This document shows, piece after piece, positions 20,475 to 32,000 of a stretch of 32,000 nt of DNA. Made by a program: the position numbers and the translations under genes. The stretch covers positions 2,807-34,806 of the forward strand of contig JAZSDZ010000050.1 of NCBI GenBank assembly GCA_045531435.1, written 5' to 3'. This stretch comes from Candidatus Fimenecus sp. (GTDB lineage: Bacteria > Bacillota > Clostridia > Oscillospirales > Acutalibacteraceae). The notes beneath the pieces were generated by a model. That model saw only the letters and a program-made list of their open reading frames with translations, did no database searches and was not told where the DNA came from. Position 1 is the first letter of the stretch. Every line of letters starts with the position of its first letter.

Positions 20475-20479
20475 CTATT

Positions 20480-22825
20480 TTATACTTTTTTAACTACGCC
20501 CATATTTGCCATAATCTTTTTTGTACCAACTTTGTCAAAAGCAATTTCCATAAGTGTATCATTACCCATTGGTTTTAAAGAAATAATCATACCTTTGCCG
20601 AATACTCTATGAGTAACTGTTTCACCAACAATAAATGAATTTGTGGTTTGTTTTTGCGGTGCTTTGAAACCAACACCAAAGCCGCTTGTAACAGATTTTG
20701 ATTGAGTTGCAGTAATACTATTACGAATTGGAGTCTTTGGCTTAACAAGTGATTGCAAACAATCCTTAGGTAACTCATCAACAAATCGTGATGGTCTGTA
20801 ATATTTTGTTGAACCAAAAACCATCCTTGAACGAGCATTTAAAAGATATAATTTTTCTTTTGCTCTTGTAATACCAACATAAGCAAGTCTTCGTTCCTCT
20901 TCAATTTCAGATGCATCATTCATAGACTGAAGGCCAGGGAAAATGCCCTCTTCAAGACCCGGAATAAATACAACAGGAAATTCAAGGCCCTTAGAAGCGT
21001 GTAATGTCATAAGAACCACTGTATCACTTTCTGAATTATAATTGTCAATATCAGTAAGTAATGCAACTTCTTCAAGGAAATCAGAAAGTTCACTTTCAGG
21101 ATTTTCTTGGCTGAATCTGATGAGATTGGAATTTAATTCATCAAGGTTCTGTAATCTATCTTCTGCTTTATTCTTTTCGACTGACTCAAGATAAGATTTA
21201 TATCCAATTTCATTAAGCAATGAAATGAAAACAGATGACATGGATTCTCGTTCTAACAGATTTGAAAAGCCTTCAATCATCTGTGTAAATTCAACAAGCT
21301 TCTGTGAACTTCGTTTTAGTTTTTCGTACTCATCAGCAGTCTTAAACACCTGAAAAAGACTTATATTAAGTGCATCGGCAATTTCTTTAGCAGTTGAAAC
21401 TGTAGTAGCTCCAATTCCGCGTTTAGGAACATTAATAATTCTTTCAAGTCGAACACTATCATCATGATTAGCAATAACAGCAAGATATGCTATTGCATCT
21501 TTAATTTCCATTCTGTCGTAGAATTTATGACCACCAATAATCCTATATGGAATACCGCTTCTTACAAGACATCTCTCAAGCGAGTTAGACATTGAATTCA
21601 TACGATAAAGAACAGCAAAATCACTGAATTTCCTATTTGAATTCATTTGCTTCATTATTTCATCAGCAATAAACTTACCTTCAGAATATTCATCATCAAG
21701 TGTATTTAATACAACCTTATCGCCTTTTCCGTTTGATGTCCATAAATTCTTACCTTTACGCTGCTCATTATTTGAAATAATAGCGTTAGCTGCATCAAGA
21801 ATGTTTTGTGTTGAACGATAATTTTGTTCAAGTCTAATAACATGAGCATTTCTAAAATTTTTCTCAAAGCTCAAAATATTTTCAATAGTCGCACCACGGA
21901 ATTTATAAATACTCTGGTCATCATCACCAACAACGCAAATATTGTTATATCCTTCTGATAAAAGTTTTGTCAACTTAAATTGAGCGTGGTTAGTATCCTG
22001 ATACTCATCCACAAGAACATACTTAAATTTACCCTGATAATATTCTCTGACATCTGAATTTTCTTCAAGGAGTTTTACAGTATAATAAATAATGTCATCA
22101 AAATCCATTGCATCAGCACTCTTTAAAAGTTTCTGATATTTTTTATAGCACTCACCTATCTGTCTTTCTCTGAAATTTCCACTTCCAAGAATCAGAAACT
22201 CGTCGGGTGAAACAAGCTTATCTTTTGCTTTGCTGATTTCAGAAAGAATTGACTTATGCGACAAAATTTTATCATCAATATCAAGAAGACGCTGGCAATC
22301 CTTCATAACCCTTTTACTGTCATCAGTATCATAGATTGTAAAGTGTTTTGAAAAACCTAAATATTCAGCATTTCTGCGCAAAATACGAACACATATAGAG
22401 TGAAATGTTCCTGCCCAAATATCGTTTGCATCTTCACCTATTCTTAATGATAATCTGTCTTTAAGTTCATTAGCAGCTTTATTAGTAAATGTAAAAGCAA
22501 GTATCTCCCACGGTTTAGGTACATCAACAGATAATAAATCTCTGATATATGAATATACAGATTCATTTCCATCATAATATGACTTAAGTAATTCTAATGA
22601 ATCATCTTCAATTCGACCTGATATTACATCAGAATTATATGCACTACCAAACTTCATCAAATTAGCAATTCTGTTAACAAGAACAGTTGTTTTGCCACTA
22701 CCCGCACCTGCAAGAATTAAAAGCGGTCCATTTACTGACAAGACCGCTTCCAACTGCATAGGATTCATTTTATTAAATTCTTTTTCAATAATTTTATTTC
22801 TTAACTCACAGATTTGTGAATACAT
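20480..22825 (-). CDS. pcrA: ATP-dependent DNA helicase PcrA (UvrD family)
   Basis: 781 aa with Walker A AGAGSGKT, DEYQDTN, and the full set of SF1 motifs. AGGAGA SD present. Confidence 0.9.
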   Translation of the reverse strand: MYSQICELRNKIIEKEFNKMNPMQLEAVLSVNGPLLILAGAGSGKTTVLVNRIANLMKFGSAYNSDVISGRIEDDSLELLKSYYDGNESVYSYIRDLLSVDVPKPWEILAFTFTNKAANELKDRLSLRIGEDANDIWAGTFHSICVRILRRNAEYLGFSKHFTIYDTDDSKRVMKDCQRLLDIDDKILSHKSILSEISKAKDKLVSPDEFLILGSGNFRERQIGECYKKYQKLLKSADAMDFDDIIYYTVKLLEENSDVREYYQGKFKYVLVDEYQDTNHAQFKLTKLLSEGYNNICVVGDDDQSIYKFRGATIENILSFEKNFRNAHVIRLEQNYRSTQNILDAANAIISNNEQRKGKNLWTSNGKGDKVVLNTLDDEYSEGKFIADEIMKQMNSNRKFSDFAVLYRMNSMSNSLERCLVRSGIPYRIIGGHKFYDRMEIKDAIAYLAVIANHDDSVRLERIINVPKRGIGATTVSTAKEIADALNISLFQVFKTADEYEKLKRSSQKLVEFTQMIEGFSNLLERESMSSVFISLLNEIGYKSYLESVEKNKAEDRLQNLDELNSNLIRFSQENPESELSDFLEEVALLTDIDNYNSESDTVVLMTLHASKGLEFPVVFIPGLEEGIFPGLQSMNDASEIEEERRLAYVGITRAKEKLYLLNARSRMVFGSTKYYRPSRFVDELPKDCLQSLVKPKTPIRNSITATQSKSVTSGFGVGFKAPQKQTTNSFIVGETVTHRVFGKGMIISLKPMGNDTLMEIAFDKVGTKKIMANMGVVKKV

Positions 22826-22841
22826 TTAAATTCTCCTATTT

Positions 22842-23366
22842 CTAAAATAAAATATTTCCCTTATAATCAATGGCAACAATCAAGGGGAAATTATTAAATT
22901 CAAGTCTTTTTATGGATTCGCATCCTAAATCATCAAAAGCAATTACATCACAACTTGTAATACATTTGGACGCAAGAGCACCCGCTCCACCTGTTGAACA
23001 AAAATAGATGGCATTATTTTTGATTATAGAATCAACAACTTCAGAACTTCTTGGACCTTTACCAATCATAGCTTTTAAACCATTGTCTAATAGAGTTGGT
23101 GTAAATTTGTCCATTCTACTTGATGTAGTTGGGCCGCAACTTCCTATTGCTAAACCATTTGGTGTAGGAGTAGGACCTGCATAATAAACAAATGCATTAT
23201 TCAGTTCGAATGGCAAATCTTCACCATTCTCAAGCAGTTGTATGATTCTCTTGTGTGCAGCATCTCTTGCAGTATAAACAATGCCGGAAAGAAAAACACG
23301 GTCTCCGGCATTGAGAATATTAATATTTTTCAATACTTCGTCTGTATTATAGTAAAATTTCGCCAT
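22842..23366 (-). CDS. Fe-S type hydro-lyase beta subunit (class I fumarate hydratase / L-tartrate dehydratase C-terminal domain family)
   Basis: 174 aa. The GPTTSSRMD and STGGAGAL motifs are typical of FumA C-terminal domain/TtdB. It terminates at TAG (22842-22844), with a second in-frame TAG two codons later. Confidence 0.8.
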   Translation of the reverse strand: MAKFYYNTDEVLKNINILNAGDRVFLSGIVYTARDAAHKRIIQLLENGEDLPFELNNAFVYYAGPTPTPNGLAIGSCGPTTSSRMDKFTPTLLDNGLKAMIGKGPRSSEVVDSIIKNNAIYFCSTGGAGALASKCITSCDVIAFDDLGCESIKRLEFNNFPLIVAIDYKGNILF

Positions 23367-24094
23367 TACTCATCCTCTTCATCATATGATACAGAAACAT
23401 AACTCTCATCACGAACAGTATAAACAACATCATTATCAGAGTTTTCATCAATTACAGTTTCGTAGTCAAAATTATGAGCTTCAATTTCTGACAAATCAGT
23501 ATGAAGATTTAACAAATTAGATGCTGAAGAATTGAGTTTTGAACTGAGCGCATATACATCCTTATGTAATTGCTCAATAGATAAATTAAACTTTTTAGAA
23601 ATTGTATCTACATCTTTTAAGAGTGATTCTATTTCTGCAGCTTCTCTCTTAATATCCTGAGATGCAAAAGCACCAATGTCCTTTGCTTTACTCTTAGCAT
23701 TTTCAACTAAATCATCAGAATAACGACGAGCATCAATGTATGCCGCACCAATTTGTTTTTCAGCACGACGAAGTTTTTCAGATTTTTCATCATATTCAAC
23801 AGATTTTTCATTGAGTTGTTTATTTTCAAGAATTGCATCATTAAGTTTTTCTTTAAGAGTTTCTATTTCTATTTCTTTTTCAGCAAGCTTATCAGAAACA
23901 CCGGAAAGAGAATCAAGTTTATCCTCAAGTTCTGCAATCTTATTTTTTAAATCAAGAACTTCCTCTCGTTTACTATCAAGACTTTCTTTCACATCAGCTG
24001 TTTCAGTCTGTAACTGTTCAATCACACTAAGAACATCTGATTTTTTAAATCCGCCGAAAAGCGAAGTTTTCATAATAGTTAAATCATTTGCCAT
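23366..24094 (-). CDS. Acidic coiled-coil protein, weakly DivIVA-like N-terminus
   Basis: 242 aa. The N-terminal FGGFKKSDVLSVIEQL resembles the DivIVA-type F..GY...V..F motif, followed by long heptad-like K/E-rich repeats. Has a TAATG overlap with the downstream gene. Confidence 0.4.
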   Translation of the reverse strand: MANDLTIMKTSLFGGFKKSDVLSVIEQLQTETADVKESLDSKREEVLDLKNKIAELEDKLDSLSGVSDKLAEKEIEIETLKEKLNDAILENKQLNEKSVEYDEKSEKLRRAEKQIGAAYIDARRYSDDLVENAKSKAKDIGAFASQDIKREAAEIESLLKDVDTISKKFNLSIEQLHKDVYALSSKLNSSASNLLNLHTDLSEIEAHNFDYETVIDENSDNDVVYTVRDESYVSVSYDEEDE

Positions 24095-24245
24095 ATAAAT
24101 TTACCTCTTATGTCTTTTATTCAACTTATTTTAACAGATTATTTTAAATAAAACAACACAAAATGAAAAATTTATTATTATATGGTAAAAAATAATAGAC
24201 AACAAAGAATTTTAGTTGTAAAATAAAAAATAAGGAGGAATTATT

Positions 24246-25217
24246 ATGAAAAAGTCAACTAAAACTGCTTTAAAAACTGTGGGAATTATTGGTACATCCG
24301 CTCTTGCTACCTACTATATGATTGGTAATTGTTTCTATCTATTTACACTTACAAAAAAGGGATTAGAAACACCATTTGTAGCAAAAATAGCAAGTGGCTC
24401 TAAAAAGGATGATGAAGAAAAAATCAGACTTAATAAATTAATGGAATTAGGAAAAAATTGGTTTAATCAGGCAGACAAAGAAAAATTAGCTATTAAATCT
24501 TCTCATTTTAATAAAAATCTTCACGCTGATTACATTTTTCCTGATAAAGAAAGTGATGTATGTGTAATTGTTATTCACGGTTATACATCTAATCCATGTT
24601 CGATGGGCGTATATGCTCAAAAATATCATGAATTAGGATACAATGTACTTATGCCGAGTCTTAATGGTCATGCTGATAGTGAAACAGGTATTATTACAAT
24701 GGGATGGTATGACAGACTTGATATTCTTGACTGGATAAATTTTCTCACTGAAAGTAACCCAAACATTAAAATAATTCTTCATGGTGTTTCAATGGGTGCC
24801 GCAACAACGATGATGACTACAGGTGAAGAACTTCCATGTAATGTTAAATTGGCAATTGCTGATTGTGGATACACATCTGTATGGGATATTTTTGATAATA
24901 AAATCAGAAATAATTTTAAAATGCATACATTCCCTACTCTCTACAGTGCTAACACAGTTAATAAAATTTATACTGGATTTGACTTTAAAAAAGCATCTTC
25001 AGTTGAACAGCTAAAAAAATCAAAAACTCCTACAATATTTATTCATGGTGATAAAGATACATTTGTACCTTACGAAATGCTTGATAAAGTTTATGAAGCT
25101 TGTGCATCAGAGAAAGAAAAGTTGACAATTCCAAATTCTCCACACGCACGAAACTCCTGTTCAAATCCCGAACTATACTGGAATTCAGTTTGTAATTTTA
25201 TTAATAGATATATGTAA
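24246..25217 (+). CDS. Membrane-anchored alpha/beta hydrolase
   Basis: N-terminal TM helix. Contains HG oxyanion motif (VIHGYT), nucleophile elbow GVSMGA, and late D/H residues. Confidence 0.75.
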   Translation: MKKSTKTALKTVGIIGTSALATYYMIGNCFYLFTLTKKGLETPFVAKIASGSKKDDEEKIRLNKLMELGKNWFNQADKEKLAIKSSHFNKNLHADYIFPDKESDVCVIVIHGYTSNPCSMGVYAQKYHELGYNVLMPSLNGHADSETGIITMGWYDRLDILDWINFLTESNPNIKIILHGVSMGAATTMMTTGEELPCNVKLAIADCGYTSVWDIFDNKIRNNFKMHTFPTLYSANTVNKIYTGFDFKKASSVEQLKKSKTPTIFIHGDKDTFVPYEMLDKVYEACASEKEKLTIPNSPHARNSCSNPELYWNSVCNFINRYM

Positions 25218-25226
25218 GCATAAAAT

Positions 25227-25248
25227 AAGCCGACCATCAGGTCGGCTT
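25227..25248. terminator. Bidirectional terminator
   Basis: Stem AAGCCGACC/GGTCGGCTT with loop ATCA, between convergent genes. Confidence 0.65.
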
Positions 25249-25258
25249 ACTTTATTAT

Positions 25259-27316
25259 TTATAGTGATTCTATTTCTCCACTTTTATATTTAAAAATTTT
25301 CAATGCATCTGCCAATTCTACTTTGCCATTTTTATCTGTATCAGCAGCCTTTAAAGCAGTTGAAGACAATGTAATTTCATTTGTTTTATATTTAAAGATT
25401 AAAAGTGCATCAGAAATTGTAACATATCCATCTGCATCAATATCACCAATTATTACATCATTGGAAACAGTCACTTTACAAATTGAAGTATGTGCACCAA
25501 CCTTTGCTGTAATTGTAGCTGTACCTTTTCCAATAGCAATCACTTTTCCATCTTCGACTGTAGCAACAGATTTATCTGATGATGTCCATATAATTGCCTT
25601 ACTATCAGTTGTATTTGATGGGTTATATTTGACTGTTAGTGTTTTTGATTCCCCATTAAACATTGATAATTCTGTTTTGTCAAGAGAAATTCCTTTAAGT
25701 GGTATTTCATTTTCTGTACTTCTTACGATATCAATATAATATGTTCTTGAATCACCATTTTCAGCCTTAACAACAACCTTAATATTATTTGTACCACCTG
25801 AAAGTTGAACTTTCCCTATTCCACTTACTGTAGCCTTTGAATTAACTGTTTTAGCAGTGATATTCACAGAAGAAACTGATTCAGCAACAGTTAAAGTATA
25901 ACCTGATGTTTTACCACCATCAAAATTAAAAGTTAAACCTTCGATTGTCAAAGAACTTAACCAATTATTAGGACTTGCATTACTATTTTTTGGTAAAGGA
26001 CAAGCTTTTTCAGGCATATTCTTAAAATAAGGAATAATGAAAGTAAAATTCTCATTAAGAATGCCTAATTTAGAATAAGATTTATACACAGTTTCAGCTT
26101 CTTTATATGGTGCAATAATGTTACTCATATATTGATGAGTCCACACTTTATTCACAACATTAAATTTTTGATAATACAATGTATCCTGATTTCTATTTAT
26201 GTATCCTGCACCAATCCACTTAGCACCACCAACAATTGCCTTATATGGTGTATTCCAAGGAATATCATAATTTTTCTTATCAGATTCAGATGCAGTATCA
26301 CCTCTTGCATATTTTAGAGCATTTCCAACAGGGTCACTACCGGCGAATGCGTGTATATTATAAAAATTATAGTATCCTGCATATGAGCCATATGTGCCAC
26401 TTGTGGAATCGCTACCGTTTTTGCCAACTTCTTGAATTGTTCTTGAAGCAAGGTGATATGGACTAACTTTTGACTGAAAACCGGCATCGATATATGCCTG
26501 AGCATATGAAACAGCTTGTCCACTTGTATTCTTTGTAGTTTTGCCATCCATAAACGAACCATCAATTATTGCATTAACACCGTTTATTGTGTGTGAAGTC
26601 GAATTATATTTTAAAGACTCAAACATAAAAACATCTTTTTCGTTAAAGAAATTTCTTGGGTCCATATAATGTGCAATTGTTTGTTTATTAGCTTGATACC
26701 AGCCACCACTATCCTGCGAAATCCATTTGTCGGTTCGCCAGTTATAAGCACCAGACTGTGTAGAACGATATGATATAGGATAAACATAGTTTACAAGACT
26801 GCGACTGAGAAAACCTTGTGCATCCTCTTCAAATAAGCTTGACCACTCTATACCGGTGTCATAAAAAACAAATTTCCAATTAGGATGTTCATTAATCAAA
26901 TCTTTAATATATGATTTGTATAATTCAGGAACACCATCGGGCATAATACCACCAGGACTATCCTGTGTTTTTTCTCTTACAAATTTTGCTGAAATAAATC
27001 CTTCGTATTCGACACCATTATACTTAAACTTAATATAACACCATTTAGGATGATTATCGTCGCCATCACTGTCAACAGTGTCAAGAATAGTCACAATATC
27101 ACCTGTATTAAGATTAATTGTATTACCATTATGTTTCAAAATATTATTTGTTGAAACAGATGTAGGCGAAGTTCTGACACGAACAGAATCATGTGTTATA
27201 TAGCCTGTTTTAGATTCAGCTGAAACAGAAAAAACAGAAGAGAACGAAAATAAAATAGAACATACTAAAATAATGGAAATAATACTCTTAATATATTTAT
27301 TTTGCATTCTTCTCAC
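25259..27316 (-). CDS. Secreted multidomain protein: SH3-like, glucosaminidase (GH73-like), cadherin-like beta-sandwich, Big_2 and type I dockerin domains
   Basis: Signal peptide present. The SH3b-like segment is GYITHDSVRVRTSP. The glucosaminidase-like core has SPYHLASRTIQEVG, YYNFYNI, TLYYQKFNV and HQYMSNIIAP. The Big_2 segment is TLTVKYNPSNTTDSKAIIWTSSDKSVATV. The dockerin is a duplicated Ca-binding segment: DIDADGYVTISDAL and DTDKNGKVELADAL. Confidence 0.75.
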   Translation of the reverse strand: MRRMQNKYIKSIISIILVCSILFSFSSVFSVSAESKTGYITHDSVRVRTSPTSVSTNNILKHNGNTINLNTGDIVTILDTVDSDGDDNHPKWCYIKFKYNGVEYEGFISAKFVREKTQDSPGGIMPDGVPELYKSYIKDLINEHPNWKFVFYDTGIEWSSLFEEDAQGFLSRSLVNYVYPISYRSTQSGAYNWRTDKWISQDSGGWYQANKQTIAHYMDPRNFFNEKDVFMFESLKYNSTSHTINGVNAIIDGSFMDGKTTKNTSGQAVSYAQAYIDAGFQSKVSPYHLASRTIQEVGKNGSDSTSGTYGSYAGYYNFYNIHAFAGSDPVGNALKYARGDTASESDKKNYDIPWNTPYKAIVGGAKWIGAGYINRNQDTLYYQKFNVVNKVWTHQYMSNIIAPYKEAETVYKSYSKLGILNENFTFIIPYFKNMPEKACPLPKNSNASPNNWLSSLTIEGLTFNFDGGKTSGYTLTVAESVSSVNITAKTVNSKATVSGIGKVQLSGGTNNIKVVVKAENGDSRTYYIDIVRSTENEIPLKGISLDKTELSMFNGESKTLTVKYNPSNTTDSKAIIWTSSDKSVATVEDGKVIAIGKGTATITAKVGAHTSICKVTVSNDVIIGDIDADGYVTISDALLIFKYKTNEITLSSTALKAADTDKNGKVELADALKIFKYKSGEIESL

Positions 27317-27410
27317 ATCCTTAAAAATATTTGTCTATATTTTACCAAATAATAAGAAAATCGTCAAGTTTGATAAATTTTCCAATTTTTTTTAAAATTT
27401 AAAATTACTA

Positions 27411-27456
27411 TTGACATTTAATTATTTTATGATATAATAACGATAATCATTACTGT
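27411..27456 (+). promoter_or_regulatory. Promoter with an overlapping Fur/PerR-type box upstream of the perR-like gene
   Basis: TTGACA (27411-27416) and TATAAT (27433-27438) are separated by 16 nt. Immediately after and overlapping lies TAACGATAATCATTACTGTTA, which contains GATAATCATTA (Fur-box-like core, imperfect dyad). Confidence 0.5.
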
Positions 27457-27471
27457 TAGTGAGGTGAGAAA

Positions 27472-27846
27472 ATGGCATTAGAAAGAAAAAGCAAGCAGCG
27501 TGATGCAATAATTAATGAACTTTGTTCACGATATGACCATCCTACTGCAATGGACCTATATCTTACAATCAGAGAATATATTCCTAACATAAGTTTGGGT
27601 ACGTTATATAGGAATTTATCACAATTAGAAGAAAATGGGATGGTTTTACGAATTCCTGATGGGTCAACCGACCGATTTGATGGGAATGTTAATCCACACG
27701 CTCATTTCAAGTGTACTACTTGTGGTAATGTTTATGATTTAATGTCATTCAAAAACGACTCAATCTCCTTTTCAGATGATATAATAAGTAAAGTTAATAA
27801 TTACAGTTTAATGGCCTTTGGGTTGTGTATAAATTGTAATAAATAA
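27472..27846 (+). CDS. perR: Fur family transcriptional regulator, likely peroxide-responsive (PerR-like)
   Basis: 124 aa with a Fur-family wHTH and two CxxC pairs (CTTCG, CINCN). Sits directly upstream of a rubrerythrin gene. The PerR subtype is inferred from context. Confidence 0.75.
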
Positions 27847-27874
27847 ATTAAAATTTATTTTTGGAGGAAATAAT

Positions 27875-28420
27875 ATGAAAAAGTTTGTATGTTCAGTTTG
27901 CGGTTATGTTCATGAAGGAGATTCAGCTCCTGAAAGATGCCCACAGTGCAAAGTTCCTGCTGACAAGTTCAATGAAGTTAAAGAAGATGAAAGAACTTGG
28001 GCTGCAGAACACGTTGTAGGTGTTGCTAAAGGTGCATCAGAAGATATCATTATGGACCTTCGTGCTAATTTTGAAGGAGAATGTTCAGAGGTTGGTATGT
28101 ACCTTGCTATGGCAAGAGTTGCTCACCGTGAAGGCTATCCTGAAATCGGTCTTTACTGGGAAAAAGCTGCTTGGGAAGAAGCGGAACACGCAGCAAAGTT
28201 TGCTGAGCTCCTTGGTGAAGTTGTAACAGACAGTACAAAGAAAAATCTTGAAATGAGAGTTGATGCTGAAAACGGCGCAACTATGGGTAAATTTAACCTT
28301 GCAAAACGTGCAAAAGAACAAGGTCTTGATGCAATCCACGATACAGTTCATGAAATGGCTCGTGACGAAGCAAGACACGGTAAGGCATTCGAAGGTCTTC
28401 TTAAGAGATATTTCAACTAA
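27875..28420 (+). CDS. Reverse rubrerythrin (N-terminal rubredoxin-like domain, C-terminal diiron domain)
   Basis: 181 aa. N-terminal CSVCG...CPQC is followed by ferritin-like EExH motifs, the reverse of the domain order in the gene at 6492-7040. Confidence 0.85.
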
Positions 28421-28446
28421 TCCCCTATTCTTATAAATATACTATT

Positions 28447-28501: not shown

Positions 28502-28570
28502 AAAAGTGGTCAACAAGTCTTTAAAACACTTCTATTATCACCTAAAAGTGGTCATAAAAAAAAGTGGTCA
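28502..28570 (+). repeat. Three direct copies of AAAAGTGGTCA
   Basis: Exact 11-mers occur at 28502-28512, 28544-28554 and 28560-28570, in non-coding DNA just inside the putative element boundary. Confidence 0.8.
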
Positions 28571-28583
28571 TCCTTGTAACAAC

Positions 28584-28704: not shown

Positions 28705-28856
28705 ATAGACACAACAAAGGGAGAGACACCAAAACAAAAAACCAAAAGGAGTGAGTAAACAAGAGGTAAATGGTTAATCCCTAAGTTAAATAAAACAATA
28801 TTAAAATAATAAAAAATAAGGTGACGACTTACCGTTTTAAGAAAGGAAACTTCAAT

Positions 28857-29264
28857 ATGAAAAATACTATCAGAGAAACAAAAATTGACCTTGCAAACAA
28901 CCTTACAATCGACCACGCAAACAAAACAATTACAGTGACAAAACAGTTCCAAAAGGCTTCAGGAAAATATGGTTCAGAAGAATATTTAGTTTGTGAAGAA
29001 CTTATGTCAAAGTTTAAAGACTATCGTTTTGTAGTAAGAACACAGAAAAAGAGAAAGTCAACAACACTCTCATATGATGAAATGACAAAATACATTTCAA
29101 AGCACGACGATAACGGTGAAATCATGAATGAGTTCCTTGTTATGAGAGGCTTAAAAGCAAATGAAAACAATGAAAAGACATCAGAGTCACCAAAAGAGAT
29201 TAGAAATTGGTTTTTCACAAAATATCCTGAACTCAAGAAAATCAATGAAAAAAAAGTTGCTTAA
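28857..29264 (+). CDS. Hypothetical protein, paralog A of a tandem pair
   Basis: ATG 28857 follows an AAAGGA SD (the GTG at 28821 in the track is less likely). Shares DHAN, EY, F..Y...VR, L.YD.M.KYI, W.F.KYPE and terminal KVA blocks with the next ORF. Confidence 0.65.
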   Translation: MKNTIRETKIDLANNLTIDHANKTITVTKQFQKASGKYGSEEYLVCEELMSKFKDYRFVVRTQKKRKSTTLSYDEMTKYISKHDDNGEIMNEFLVMRGLKANENNEKTSESPKEIRNWFFTKYPELKKINEKKVA

Positions 29265-29287
29265 TTAAGAAAGGAAGGTAATAAATT

Positions 29288-29710
29288 ATGGCAAAATCAA
29301 GAACACCTGTTAAATTCGACCATGCGAACAATAAAATAATTCTTTACAAATGGTTTGAGGAAAAAGCACGATACCCTAAGAATGATGAATATACAATGCT
29401 TGCTAATTTTATAAAAAGTTTTCCAAATTATACTATAACTGTTCGTGATGATATAAAAACAAACAGTAAACAGGAACACTACAAAGGGTTAAAATACGAT
29501 TATATGGAAAAGTATATAAGAAGGTTTGAACCTGAAGAAACAAGAGAAGAAGTTCTCAAAGAACTTGAGGATAGAAAATTCATAAGTCAGTGTCATTCAA
29601 AGGGGCATCGTTATCCCACAATAAAGAAATGGTTTTTAGAAAAATATCCTGAGGTAACAACAAATGGTATGCCAATTATTACTGATACACCACTCGAAAA
29701 AGTTGCATAA
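29288..29710 (+). CDS. Hypothetical protein, paralog B of a tandem pair
   Basis: 140 aa. GGAAGG SD lies upstream. Shows clear block similarity to paralog A. No family is confidently recognised. Confidence 0.7.
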   Translation: MAKSRTPVKFDHANNKIILYKWFEEKARYPKNDEYTMLANFIKSFPNYTITVRDDIKTNSKQEHYKGLKYDYMEKYIRRFEPEETREEVLKELEDRKFISQCHSKGHRYPTIKKWFLEKYPEVTTNGMPIITDTPLEKVA

Positions 29711-29745
29711 AAGGAAGAATAAATAATGAAACTTAATAGGACAAA

Positions 29746-29785
29746 AACACCACTGAATTTTAAAGAGTTCAGTGGTGTTTTTGTT
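29746..29785 (+). terminator. Rho-independent terminator after the paralog pair
   Basis: 12-bp stem AACACCACTGAA/TTCAGTGGTGTT is followed by TTTTGTTT. Confidence 0.75.
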
Positions 29786-29803: not shown

Positions 29804-29833
29804 TTGGACTTTATTAAAAAAAATTGTTATAAT
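29804..29833 (+). promoter_or_regulatory. Candidate promoter of the TAG-containing gene run
   Basis: TTGGAC (29804-29809) is followed 18 nt later by TATAAT (29828-29833), with an upstream TG (TGTTATAAT, extended -10). Confidence 0.45.
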
Positions 29834-29902: not shown

Positions 29903-30088
29903 ATGTATAGTAAAAAAACTAAAAAAATTGATGTTCGCCTAACTGCAAAAGAGAAAGAGGAAATCCAATAGTAGGCAAAAAAGTATCACATGAACACAAG
30001 TCAATACATTAGGTTTATATGTGAAATGTGGAGGATTTGCGAAAATGAGCATAATCAATCAAGCACCAATATTAAAGTCGAAGGGTGA
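29903..30088 (+). CDS. Ribbon-helix-helix (MobC/CopG-like) protein, interrupted by tandem in-frame TAG TAG at 29969-29974
   Basis: AGGAG-n7-ATG start. Translation is MYSKKTKKIDVRLTAKEKEEIQ**AKKYHMNTSQYIRFI..., and the pattern K.I.VRLT..EKEEI...A......S.YIR spans the two TAGs in frame. TGA stop. It is a 22-aa stub under the standard code. Confidence 0.5.
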
Positions 30089-30596
30089 AAAAAACAGAGA
30101 TAAAAAATGGGGTATGGCAATAAGAACACATGAACTTGAAACAATACTTTTTAATGGTCTGACAGGAAAACAAGGTGCATAGTTAAAACTGATGTTATTT
30201 TTGACAGGAAATGCAGACAACGGAAGTTTTGCAATCGCAGAGGCAACAGTTATGAGCCGTTGTGGAATGTCAGAAACAACATACAAGAGTGCAAGAAAAT
30301 CATTGGTTGAAAAAGGATGGATAATCCATAAACCAAGTGTAAACGGTCAACAGGGTGAAATCATTGTGGATTATGATACAATTTATAAAAGTGCAGAGAG
30401 GGATATTGATATTACCCCTTCCCCTGACATTGAAAATACCCCTTCAAATTCTGATTGTTCCTCGGCAGGGGTTATTGAATATACACATAATAATAAAGTT
30501 GAAAAAACAAATAATAATATTATAAAATCAAATATTATAAACAAACCAAAAGTAAATGATGAGTTCAGTGATGAGAAAGGAAACTTCATATTTTAA
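30045..30596 (+). CDS. Winged-HTH replication/regulator-like protein, interrupted by in-frame TAG at 30180-30182
   Basis: GGAGGA-n9-ATG at 30045. Translation is ...ELETILFNGLTGKQGA*LKLMLFLTGNADNGSFAIAEATVMSRCGMSETTYKSARKSLVEKGWII. The frame is continuous with track ORF 30192-30596, whose own ATG lacks a well-spaced SD. Confidence 0.55.
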
Positions 30597-30613
30597 GAAA
30601 AAGGAGAATTCAA

Positions 30614-31024
30614 ATGAGTAAATATACAGACTATATTTACAACAAATATTTAGAATAGGAATGGTCAAAAGAATTTGACTGTGCAGGGGTCTATTCAATA
30701 ACCGTCAACAATAAAATTGTATATGTTGGTAAAAGTAAAAATATACTCTACAGAATGGCAGAACATTGGATTTCAATGGCAAATCCAAAAGAAAACAAAT
30801 ACAAAGTATTATCAGAGGCAAGAAGTAGAAAATATAAAATTCGATTTAATATTTTACATACTGCATCAAGTCGCACAATGGATGAAATTGACGAGGAAAT
30901 AGGAGAAAGAGAGGGTTATTTTATTCGTCTCTATACTCCCCCTCTTAATTATCAAATTCCAAAAGAGGAAAATTGGAGAAAATTTAAAATTAACAGGGGT
31001 GCATTGAATATATCCCTTGATTAG
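30614..31024 (+). CDS. GIY-YIG nuclease family protein, interrupted by in-frame TAG at 30656-30658; ends at TAG 31022 or TGA 31046 if TAG is read through
   Basis: AAGGAGA-n6-ATG start. Translation is MSKYTDYIYNKYLE*EWSKEFDCAGVYSITVNNKIVYVGKSKNILYRMAEH...GEREGYFIRLYTPPLN, giving the GVY-x9-YVG, R, E and N motifs. There is no in-frame start between the TAG and the GIY motif. Confidence 0.6.
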
Positions 31025-31044
31025 ATTTTGGAAGGAGAAATTAT

Positions 31045-31233
31045 ATGAATAATGAAATGTTAGAAACATTACGAGACTTAGGAAAAGTCCCTGACTTATT
31101 CTATTATCAACTCAATGGAAAGTCGGCAAATGAAAATTTTAGAGAATAGAGAAATAATTTTCTTGAATTATTAGAAAATTTTGATGAACCTGAAACCATA
31201 AAAATCATCACGGAAAGTAAGGTGAAAGAATAA
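31045..31233 (+). CDS. Small hypothetical protein, interrupted by in-frame TAG at 31147-31149
   Basis: GGAGA-n6-ATG start. Translation is MNNEMLETLRDLGKVPDLFYYQLNGKSANENFRE*RNNFLELLENFDEPETIKIITESKVKE. Has a TAATG overlap with the next ORF. Confidence 0.4.
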
Positions 31234-31376
31234 TGGCAAACATAAAAGAAAGAAACAAGAAAAAACAAAAAAAGAAGAAAAACATACTCGAGTCAGAAAT
31301 TCTTGCAATTATGCAAAAAAGTTTAAAAACTGCACTCGATATGGCACTTGATGAATTATTAAAAGACTTCAAGTAA
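31233..31376 (+). CDS. Small Lys-rich hypothetical protein (47 aa)
   Basis: Start overlaps the previous stop (TAATG). Translation is MANIKERNKKKQKKKKNILESEILAIMQKSLKTALDMALDELLKDFK. A terminator follows. Confidence 0.4.
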   Translation: MANIKERNKKKQKKKKNILESEILAIMQKSLKTALDMALDELLKDFK

Positions 31377-31381
31377 TACAA

Positions 31382-31424
31382 ACGGCAAACCAAGAGAAAC
31401 ATTCTCAAGGTTTGCCGTATTTTG
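31382..31424 (+). terminator. Rho-independent terminator ending the plus-strand element operon
   Basis: Stem ACGGCAAACC/GGTTTGCCGT with a 17-nt loop, followed by ATTTTG. Confidence 0.6.
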
Positions 31425-31593: not shown

Positions 31594-31708
31594 TGTTCAT
31601 AAAAACAAATGATTTCATGAACACTTTTAGGTCACGAATAATATAGTGTATTTGACCGTCAAAACACAGGATTTTGTTCACGAAACAAGTTACCCCTTTT
31701 CATGAACA
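31594..31708. promoter_or_regulatory. Two inverted-repeat pairs TGTTCAY...ATGAACA (possible protein-binding sites)
   Basis: Pair 1 is TGTTCAT 31594-31600 with ATGAACA 31617-31623. Pair 2 is TGTTCAC 31675-31681 with ATGAACA 31702-31708, reaching into the 3' end of the XRE gene. Function unknown. Confidence 0.3.
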
Positions 31709-31917
31709 TCAGAGTCTTTTACATACTCCATAAGGTCGGCAGGTTGACAATCAAACTTTTCACAAAGTCGAGAAAGGGTTTTGTGGTCTAATCCACCTGT
31801 TCCGTTCTTTAATGCAGTCAATGTTCCCTGCCCTATCAATTTGTCTTGACGGATTTTGTATGTTGTATAACCATTATCCTTCAAAAGTTTAAATAGTTTA
31901 TCATATATTATTGGCAT
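31690..31917 (-). CDS. XRE/Cro-CI family helix-turn-helix transcriptional regulator
   Basis: The start is moved to ATG 31917 (MPIIYDKLFKLLKDNGYTTYKIRQ...), which follows an AAGGAGG SD. The C-terminal pattern LSRLCEKFDCQPADLMEYV is typical of short XRE regulators on mobile elements. Confidence 0.8.
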   Translation of the reverse strand: MPIIYDKLFKLLKDNGYTTYKIRQDKLIGQGTLTALKNGTGGLDHKTLSRLCEKFDCQPADLMEYVKDSDVHEKG

Positions 31918-32000
31918 ATAAAAAGCCTCCTTTTCCATTGTCCATATTATATCAAAGAATATGCACAAAGTCAAGTGTATAAAATAAACAAATATATACA

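Follow-up and report, generated by a model that had tools for sequence, protein, structure and literature searches.

Code-15-type TAG recoding in a capsid-less, satellite-like family of integrative elements from Oscillospirales

Introduction

Four neighbouring genes of a mobile element, each interrupted in frame by TAG and by no other stop codon, raise the question of whether they are broken or are written in a different genetic code, and of what would then read them. The genes lie at 29903–31233 of a 32,000-nucleotide stretch of DNA (here called the window) from Candidatus Fimenecus sp. (Bacillota, Clostridia, Oscillospirales, Acutalibacteraceae; assembly GCA_045531435.1, contig JAZSDZ010000050.1, positions 2,807–34,806 of the forward strand). 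They are predicted to encode a ribbon–helix–helix (RHH) protein, a replication-initiator-like protein (Rep), a GIY-YIG nuclease and a small open reading frame (ORF) product.

An earlier note, made from the letters of the window alone, proposed amber recoding or suppressor-gated expression in a host that itself uses the standard code. This core proposal was supported by the comparative analysis described here and survived each refutation test that was run. The genes form an operon of an 8.2 kb integrative element, and they represent genuine code-15-type recoding (TAG to glutamine) in a capsid-less, tRNA-less, satellite-like element family; such recoding was previously known from phages and prophages.

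The TAG-interrupted operon

All four genes are on the plus strand. The RHH gene (NikA-like/Arc-like; 29903–30088, 61 codons) carries a tandem TAG at 29969–29974 and extends to the TGA at 30086–30088, overlapping the start of rep; a Pfam NikA-like match (2e-10) runs across both TAGs. The rep gene (30045–30596, 183 codons, TAG at 30180–30182) encodes a winged-helix protein with PHROG DnaD-like, replication-initiation and O-like matches (2e-10 to 5e-8) and a Pfam HTH_36 match. The nuclease gene (30614–31048, 144 codons; Pfam GIY-YIG, 2e-6) contains TAGs at 30656–30658 and 31022–31024, and the small ORF (31045–31233, 62 codons) one at 31147–31149. No family match to the small ORF was found in Pfam, PHROG or a further homology search.

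The five TAGs listed in the earlier note (the tandem pair at 29969–29974 and those at 30180, 30656 and 31147) were all confirmed in frame with upstream ATGs, and a GGAG-type ribosome-binding site precedes every ATG, in agreement with the Shine–Dalgarno sequences that it had described. Its count, however, had to be raised to six, since 31022–31024 is an internal TAG and not the stop codon of the nuclease gene. The true stop is the TGA at 31046–31048, which overlaps the next ATG as ATGA, and the eight codons past TAG 31022 can be aligned with the C-termini of homologues, the extension 'xILEGEII' pairing with 'QIMEGE..'.

Three further observations of the note were borne out: none of the four genes is broken by TAA, TGA or a frameshift; the reading frame continues across the TAGs, with Pfam and PHROG matches now seen to span the interruptions in the RHH, Rep and GIY-YIG genes; and no in-frame start lies between the nuclease TAG at 30656 and the catalytic motif. 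The genes terminate, in order, with TGA, TAA, TGA and TAA, and none with TAG. Because TAG makes up only 14% of the stop trinucleotides on the plus strand of the window, the probability that six random nonsense lesions would all be TAG is about 0.14^6, or ~1e-5.

Automated annotations of these genes vary. In the NCBI annotation a related copy (L002 11411–11737; related loci are numbered L001 onwards) is a 108-aa truncated GIY-YIG protein with the neighbouring genes omitted or truncated, and Logan gene calls on some short contigs (e.g. L005 2354–2788) read through the TAGs. Since the gene callers disagree, the database proteins of the GIY-YIG family are a mixture of fragments and code-15 translations.

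Comparison with homologues

Independent copies of the element were located by means of the 140-aa protein encoded just upstream of the operon. The TAGs were identical across independent ENA, NCBI and Logan assemblies of different samples wherever the copies cover the region, with one exception: copies L004 and L006, which are ~95% identical, have AAG at the site of the first RHH TAG.

Approximately 270 GIY-YIG homologues from Oscillospirales genomes and from gut and rumen metagenomes were compared; those examined include 80 species-level genome loci, 27 IMG/VR contigs and 80 metagenome contigs. They are full-length (~140 aa) only if TAG is read as sense, and ~240 of them hold one to five TAGs at positions that vary between lineages. 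The earlier note had named mixed stop types or frameshifts in homologues as the sign of decay, and not one TAA, TGA or frameshift lesion was found in these ~270 genes. TAGs were present in 74 of the 87 nuclease homologues from small elements (142 TAGs per 12,108 codons) and in 79 of the 80 from metagenomes. The 80 genome loci, obtained by a nuclease-query genome scan, span Acutalibacteraceae, Oscillospiraceae and Faecousia metagenome-assembled genomes (MAGs) as well as cultured isolates; Oscillibacter valericigenes, Pseudoflavonifractor phocaeensis and Hominicoprocola fusiformis are cultured carriers.

The residues aligned with TAG were tabulated, as the note had suggested. TAG positions shift between lineages and prefer glutamine codons, glutamine being enriched six- to ninefold opposite TAG. 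In pairs 60–97% identical, TAG faces CAG in 28% and CAA in 10% of cases, far above the one-step neighbours GAG, AAG and TGG. The conserved nuclease motif LNxQIP has its glutamine in 78 sequences and TAG in 12. The TAG sites of the window itself face glutamine in the nearest relatives that have no TAG there: at the Rep site 30180, ten close relatives have TAG and L019 has glutamine, and in the small-ORF family (cluster 23), in which 13 of 16 members carry TAG, the TAG column of the window is glutamine in 10 of 12 other members.

The ratio of nonsynonymous to synonymous substitution rates (dN/dS), calculated against relatives of the same element type, was 0.09–0.4 for all four genes (0.2–0.4 for RHH, 0.15–0.25 for Rep and ~0.1 for GIY-YIG), which shows purifying selection on the read-through products. 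Judged from these comparisons, the TAGs are very probably translated sense codons kept by selection, and those of the operon are most probably read as glutamine in the manner of code 15.

Partition of TAG between genes and the code of the host

For the partition counts, ORFs were clustered across loci with TAG as a sense codon, and TAG usage was measured as TAG/(TAG+CAA+CAG). In the small elements the share was 0.277 for GIY-YIG, 0.18–0.29 for the RHH families, 0.21 for the small ORF and 0.074 for Rep, against 0.007 for the integrase, 0.010 for the serine recombinase, 0.003 for a pair of 147/140-aa paralogues, 0.007 for an HTH_26 regulator, 0 for a 91-aa gene and 0.006 for a WYL regulator. The paralogues (cluster 6) have one TAG in 12,549 codons (84 copies in 41 loci), and the HTH_26 regulator has one in 2,571 codons over 35 loci. 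Within the present element, the operon contains six TAGs to nine CAA/CAG codons and the nine other genes none to 62 (Fisher p = 2e-5). A partition of TAG by gene set is thus evident from codon counts.

The use of TAG as a normal terminator elsewhere in the element would, according to the earlier note, have spoken against recoding; the other genes of the element end in TAA and have no in-frame TAG. They should therefore be expressible in a standard-code host. Among the other genes of the window, 26 stop at TAA and three at TGA; TAG is the terminator in one of 30 genes. This single case is the host gene at 22842–23366 (minus strand), which ends with TAG-AAA-TAG at 22836–22844, as the note had read it. 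In the host flanks, 25 of 260 ORFs of at least 250 aa (9.6%) stop at TAG and the host genes show no in-frame TAGs, from which it follows that the hosts use the standard code.

The integrative element

A direct repeat of ~100 bp (28340–28442, equivalent to L001 9048–9150) recurs with 87% identity at L001 17306–17408, beyond a tyrosine integrase. The element measures 8.2 kb from att to att, is inserted in the 3' end of a rubrerythrin gene and extends past the end of the window; contig L003 (8,287 bp) spans exactly from repeat to repeat. In L001 (MAG RGIG8575) the host genes are syntenic with those of the window and 67–89% identical (window 20478–28442 versus L001 5–9150), whereas the element is 96–100% identical, the shift occurring at 28443 (80–89% before, 96–100% after). 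As the same element occupies the same rubrerythrin site in hosts that have diverged, it moved recently between two host species. These alignments delimit the element and mark it as recently mobile. Because one BLAST alignment begins at 27409, the Fur and rubrerythrin genes were considered as element genes; they are conserved host genes (80–89%), and the element starts at 28443. The ~8.2 kb contigs L003, L214 and L216 were likewise considered as circular or excised copies and rejected: they are the integrated form or fragments, since their ends are diverged att copies.

The gene order repeats in tens of genomes: 147-aa protein, 140-aa protein, RHH, Rep, GIY-YIG, small ORF and a 47-aa ORF, followed by a divergent Cro/CI-type helix–turn–helix (HTH) regulator, the 91-aa protein, the serine recombinase, variable cargo, the WYL regulator and the integrase. 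The cargo, which lies between the serine recombinase and the WYL regulator, is a SHOCT-domain protein in this element (L001 13757–14587) and, in relatives, a type IV/Mrr-like restriction nuclease (L201 12659–13930), a leucine-rich-repeat protein (L214 5531–6646) or an unassigned 1,030-aa protein (L216 3886–6978). The slot has the look of a hotspot for defence or cargo genes under the WYL regulator.

In shorter variants the integrase directly follows the nuclease and abuts a host tRNA gene. Six relatives from human-gut metagenomes (L264, L265, L277, L282, L284 and L296) adjoin a tRNA-Sec (TCA) gene ~2 kb downstream of the nuclease gene, which is presumably their integration site; further relatives adjoin tRNA-Pro, Thr, Val, Arg or Ala. 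The isolate Oscillibacter valericigenes An860 has two members, one of each architecture (L032, NZ_JAFBIV010000004.1, and L038, NZ_JAFBIV010000002.1), both with in-frame TAGs.

Capsid, tail, terminase and lysis genes were not found in the element, nor was a relaxase domain detected in any of its proteins or a coupling protein among them.

Search for a decoding factor

Searches for tRNA genes were made with ARAGORN at default settings and with Rfam at gathering thresholds and at E <= 1. Contrary to the element-encoded suppressor tRNA that the earlier note had envisaged, no tRNA-CUA was found in the window, the element, the 10 kb flanks, the ~300 related loci or a 22,505 bp recoded phage contig. 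With relaxed ARAGORN thresholds and introns allowed, only scattered noise inside coding regions was obtained. The element, its flanks and the ~300 related loci likewise yielded no other code-change factor (release factor 2 or an aminoacyl-tRNA synthetase). From the missing tRNA-CUA we infer that TAG decoding is supplied in trans. Suppressors are detectable in only ~40% of TAG-recoded phages (Borges et al., 10.1101/2021.08.26.457843), so that their absence here is not unprecedented.

A TAG-free protein recoding factor common to recoded phages and small elements was also sought, and none was found. When gene presence was compared between TAG-using and TAG-free loci, the 147/140-aa paralogues occurred in 41 of 88 and 0 of 15, respectively, a comparison confounded by phylogeny and short contigs.

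Related phages and a circular relative

The same integrase/Rep/GIY-YIG module is found in temperate siphophages from the same order, on IMG/VR contigs of 22–27 kb. Behind it come terS, TerL and genes for an SPP1-type portal, a minor head protein and long products of the tail region, one of them a tape-measure-like ORF of 773 aa; the GIY-YIG gene itself directly precedes terS and TerL. Heavy TAG recoding is seen in some of these phages, others use the standard code, and the integrase is TAG-free. TAG-recoded Topaz prophages of ~22 kb with a TAG-free integrase have been described in Oscillospiraceae (Borges et al., 10.1101/2021.08.26.457843), and in size, host, tRNA-Thr integration and TAG-free integrase the 22–27 kb relatives resemble that description, on which the likeness is based. 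Searches of GenBank phage records, at the DNA and the protein level, yielded nothing that matches the element or its nuclease.

A contig of 22,505 bp was reassembled from L205 and L093 (IMGVR_UViG_3300045988_102862) and represents an apparently near-complete siphophage. TAG occurs in nearly every gene, also in those for replication, the exceptions being the integrase and five small genes. The contig has no tRNA gene (ARAGORN; Rfam E <= 1). The concentration of TAG in early-type genes to which the earlier note drew attention is present in the element but is not special to it, as the phages recode their replication gene too. It is what remains because the element has no late genes, while the related phages recode nearly everything.

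A second relative is pRGI00117 (L218, HG796263.1, 1–7167), a 7.2 kb circular element from a rat-caecum metamobilome, the published annotation of which consists of 14 short coding-sequence fragments. With TAG as sense, it encodes terS (two TAGs), GIY-YIG (two TAGs) and a phage-related 167-aa protein (four TAGs); its plasmid Rep and the neighbouring 182-aa gene are TAG-free, and it has no tRNA. Read in this way, it independently shows the same split, between maintenance genes and putative phage-interaction genes.

Other features of the window

The repeat at 28340–28442 (plus strand), taken as attL, is formed by the 3'-terminal part of the host rubrerythrin gene; a second copy lies at the other end of the element. 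Just inside it lie three copies of AAAAGTGGTCA (28502–28571, plus strand; repeat family D1), which may be recombinase arm-type sites; a cluster of similar AAAAGTGGTA/AAAAGTTGTTA repeats adjoins the integrase end of L003. The TAG-free paralogues follow at 28821–29264 (147 aa) and 29288–29710 (140 aa), both on the plus strand, the latter 100% identical to the L001 copy. Together (28821–29710) they share a conserved C-terminal 'RYPTIKKWFLEKYPE' motif and represent an uncharacterized family, with no match in Pfam, PHROG, PADLOC or PDB sequences; an AlphaFold2 model of the 140-aa paralogue (predicted local distance difference test score 76) gave no significant match in a Foldseek search against the PDB. 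A perfect 17 bp hairpin followed by a T run (29741–29784, plus strand; inverted repeat I2, 100% complementary) is the likely terminator of the pair.

Ahead of the operon there is a promoter-like site at 29805–29833 (plus strand; TGGACT-17-TATAAT with an extended -10 TG), which matches the consensus at 10 of 12 positions, a consensus match only. Inside the 3' half of rep, repeat pairs of ~20 nucleotides with 24-nucleotide spacing were found at 30402–30445 and 30475–30519 (D4 and D5); in this they recall the iterons of origins that lie within the gene for their own initiator, lambda O being an example. The last gene of the operon, a lysine-rich 47-aa ORF (31233–31376, plus strand; cluster 42, in nine loci), is TAG-free here and overlaps the small ORF through TAATG. 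A hairpin and T run at 31382–31418 (plus strand; inverted repeat I3, 17-nucleotide arms, 88% complementary) is the likely operon terminator. Beyond it, the TAG-free Cro/CI-type HTH_26 regulator (31690–31917, minus strand; Pfam HTH_26, 1.3e-12) is divergent from the rest of the element; it is called as 75 aa in L001–L005, and a strong promoter-like site precedes it at 31974–31946 on the minus strand.

Proposed mechanism and alternatives

In a quiet host, ribosomes would stop at the first TAG, doubly so at the tandem TAG of the first gene, and the operon would be silent. The operon would be translated once the cell begins to decode TAG, for which infection by, or induction of, a code-15 phage is the most plausible cause; the element would then replicate through Rep and the candidate iterons inside rep, and deploy its nuclease. 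The TAG-free genes would be those needed in the quiet host (integration, regulation and cargo) and the TAG-rich genes those needed once the element is active (replication and nuclease), the TAGs acting as a translational helper-phage sensor of a satellite-like element. Since the phage nuclease gene adjoins terS and TerL, the nuclease may work with the terminase in packaging. Borges et al. (10.1101/2021.08.26.457843) have speculated that a phage might use recoding to detect other phages that infect the same cell.

On balance we favour a gate on operon expression that acts in trans; its likeliest source is a recoding phage, which would be the helper on which the element depends. Support for induction, packaging and transfer by such a helper is indirect and comes from the module common to element and phages, the TAG gate and the near-identical copies in diverged hosts. 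Much more tentative is the wider proposal that, across a capsid-less Oscillospirales element family of islands and at least one plasmid-like circle, TAG-written genes sense a code-15 phage through a switch that is possibly tRNA-free. The switch may work without a suppressor tRNA because the elements and the 22.5 kb phage contig show none; for example, release factor 1 might be inactivated and tRNA-Gln(CUG) might read UAG.

Several results weigh against phage-gated glutamine recoding. No tRNA-CUA was found in the element, its relatives or the recoded phage contig; if the related phages have no suppressor of their own, a helper may not be the supplier of a tRNA, and the agent may be host-borne or of another kind. 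Some family TAGs face conserved leucine, tyrosine or glutamate columns; a few copies may accordingly be decaying, or the residue may not always be glutamine. No packaging gene (terS, cos or pac) or capsid-size function was recognized in the element, and no circular or encapsidated form of it was seen.

Of the competing explanations, the one with most standing, which we regard as unlikely but worth serious attention, is that the host or the element decodes TAG through an undetected factor, such as a noncanonical tRNA or a protein able to put release factor 1 out of action. The gate would then be host physiology, or there would be none, and the element would be autonomous or mobilized by conjugation. 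The lack of a suppressor tRNA in a recoded phage contig whose module belongs to the same family fits this explanation, as do the modest proportion (~40%) of recoded phages with detectable suppressors (10.1101/2021.08.26.457843), the resemblance of the first operon gene to the relaxosome accessory protein NikA, and the confinement of the TAG-free paralogues to TAG-using loci. The same paralogues, however, are absent from the recoded phages, and no relaxase was found in the element. The TAG terminators of host-flank genes, together with their freedom from in-frame TAGs, argue that decoding is not both constitutive and efficient, and so sharp a division between genes rich in TAG and genes free of it implies that translation has two states.

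It is improbable that the element is the decaying remnant of a code-15 prophage with its TAG genes as unexpressed leftovers. The module is indeed common to full-size recoded phages, and the element has neither structural genes nor a visible TAG decoder. Yet a 12-gene architecture that includes genes lacking in phages repeats in tens of species-level genomes, near-identical copies with intact att repeats occur in hosts with flanks 67–89% identical, the dN/dS values among members of the small-element lineage are low (0.09–0.4), and the ~270 nuclease genes are free of TAA, TGA and frameshift lesions.

Decoding of TAG as pyrrolysine or another residue is very unlikely. Although some TAG columns face lysine, glutamate or aspartate more than glutamine, no codon stands opposite TAG nearly as often as CAG, and glutamine shows the strongest enrichment; neither pyl genes nor tRNA-Pyl were found in any locus at default settings, and code 15 is the reassignment known from gut phages. 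Ordinary pseudogenes produced by random nonsense mutation, or consensus and assembly errors, can be set aside: the NCBI pipeline does annotate only truncated fragments such as the 108-aa GIY-YIG protein, but six of six interruptions are TAG, the TAGs are the same in independent assemblies and they are conserved or exchanged with glutamine codons over hundreds of homologues, comparative data that refute this explanation.

Relation to known systems and significance

The element is like the TAG-recoded gut phages and prophages (above all the small temperate Topaz and Garnet clades; 10.1101/2021.08.26.457843) in its glutamine-like TAG in a standard-code host, TAG-free integrase, Oscillospiraceae hosts, tRNA-Thr integration in near relatives, and recoded and standard-code relatives that are interleaved. 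It differs from them in measuring 8.2 kb, in having no capsid, tail, terminase or lysis genes, in adding the 147/140-aa paralogues, WYL regulator, serine recombinase and cargo slot, and in integrating into a protein-coding gene.

Phage satellite families include PICI, P4-like and PLE elements and the minimalist PICMI and VEIME types. Like these, the element is a small integrative island with an integrase, a Cro/CI-type regulator, its own initiator with candidate iterons and no virion genes; it also has a variable cargo slot (with a defence-type nuclease in one relative) and genes common to a particular group of phages. It differs in that terS, capsid-size and cos functions were not recognized. 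In a search of bioRxiv preprints and open-access papers, no satellite was found to be reported as using a code difference as an induction signal, and no account of recoding in a non-viral element came to light, a scope that falls short of proving absence.

The arrangement also recalls laboratory amber conditional-lethal mutants on suppressor hosts, in which the expression of essential genes hinges on UAG suppression and a tandem TAG tightens the block; in the element family it is natural, recurs in hundreds of lineages under selective maintenance and involves a single functional module only. With the integrative and mobilizable elements of Bacillota the element shares its small size, tyrosine integrase and serine recombinase, NikA-like RHH protein and cargo, but no relaxase or coupling protein was detected in it, and the closest relatives of its core module are phage genes.

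Because standard annotation shreds the genes, databases in effect hide an element family that is widespread in Clostridia of the rumen and the human gut. The lack of a suppressor even in the 22.5 kb recoded phage sharpens the question of how TAG is decoded in the majority of recoded phages, in which no suppressor is detectable; this question can be put to the test in cultured carriers such as Oscillibacter valericigenes An860 and Pseudoflavonifractor phocaeensis An901. If the interpretation proposed here is true, stop-codon recoding, so far described for phages, extends to small non-viral mobile elements, and the family would be a natural instance of genetic-code gating: a hyperparasite would remain silent until a helper phage alters the reading of UAG.

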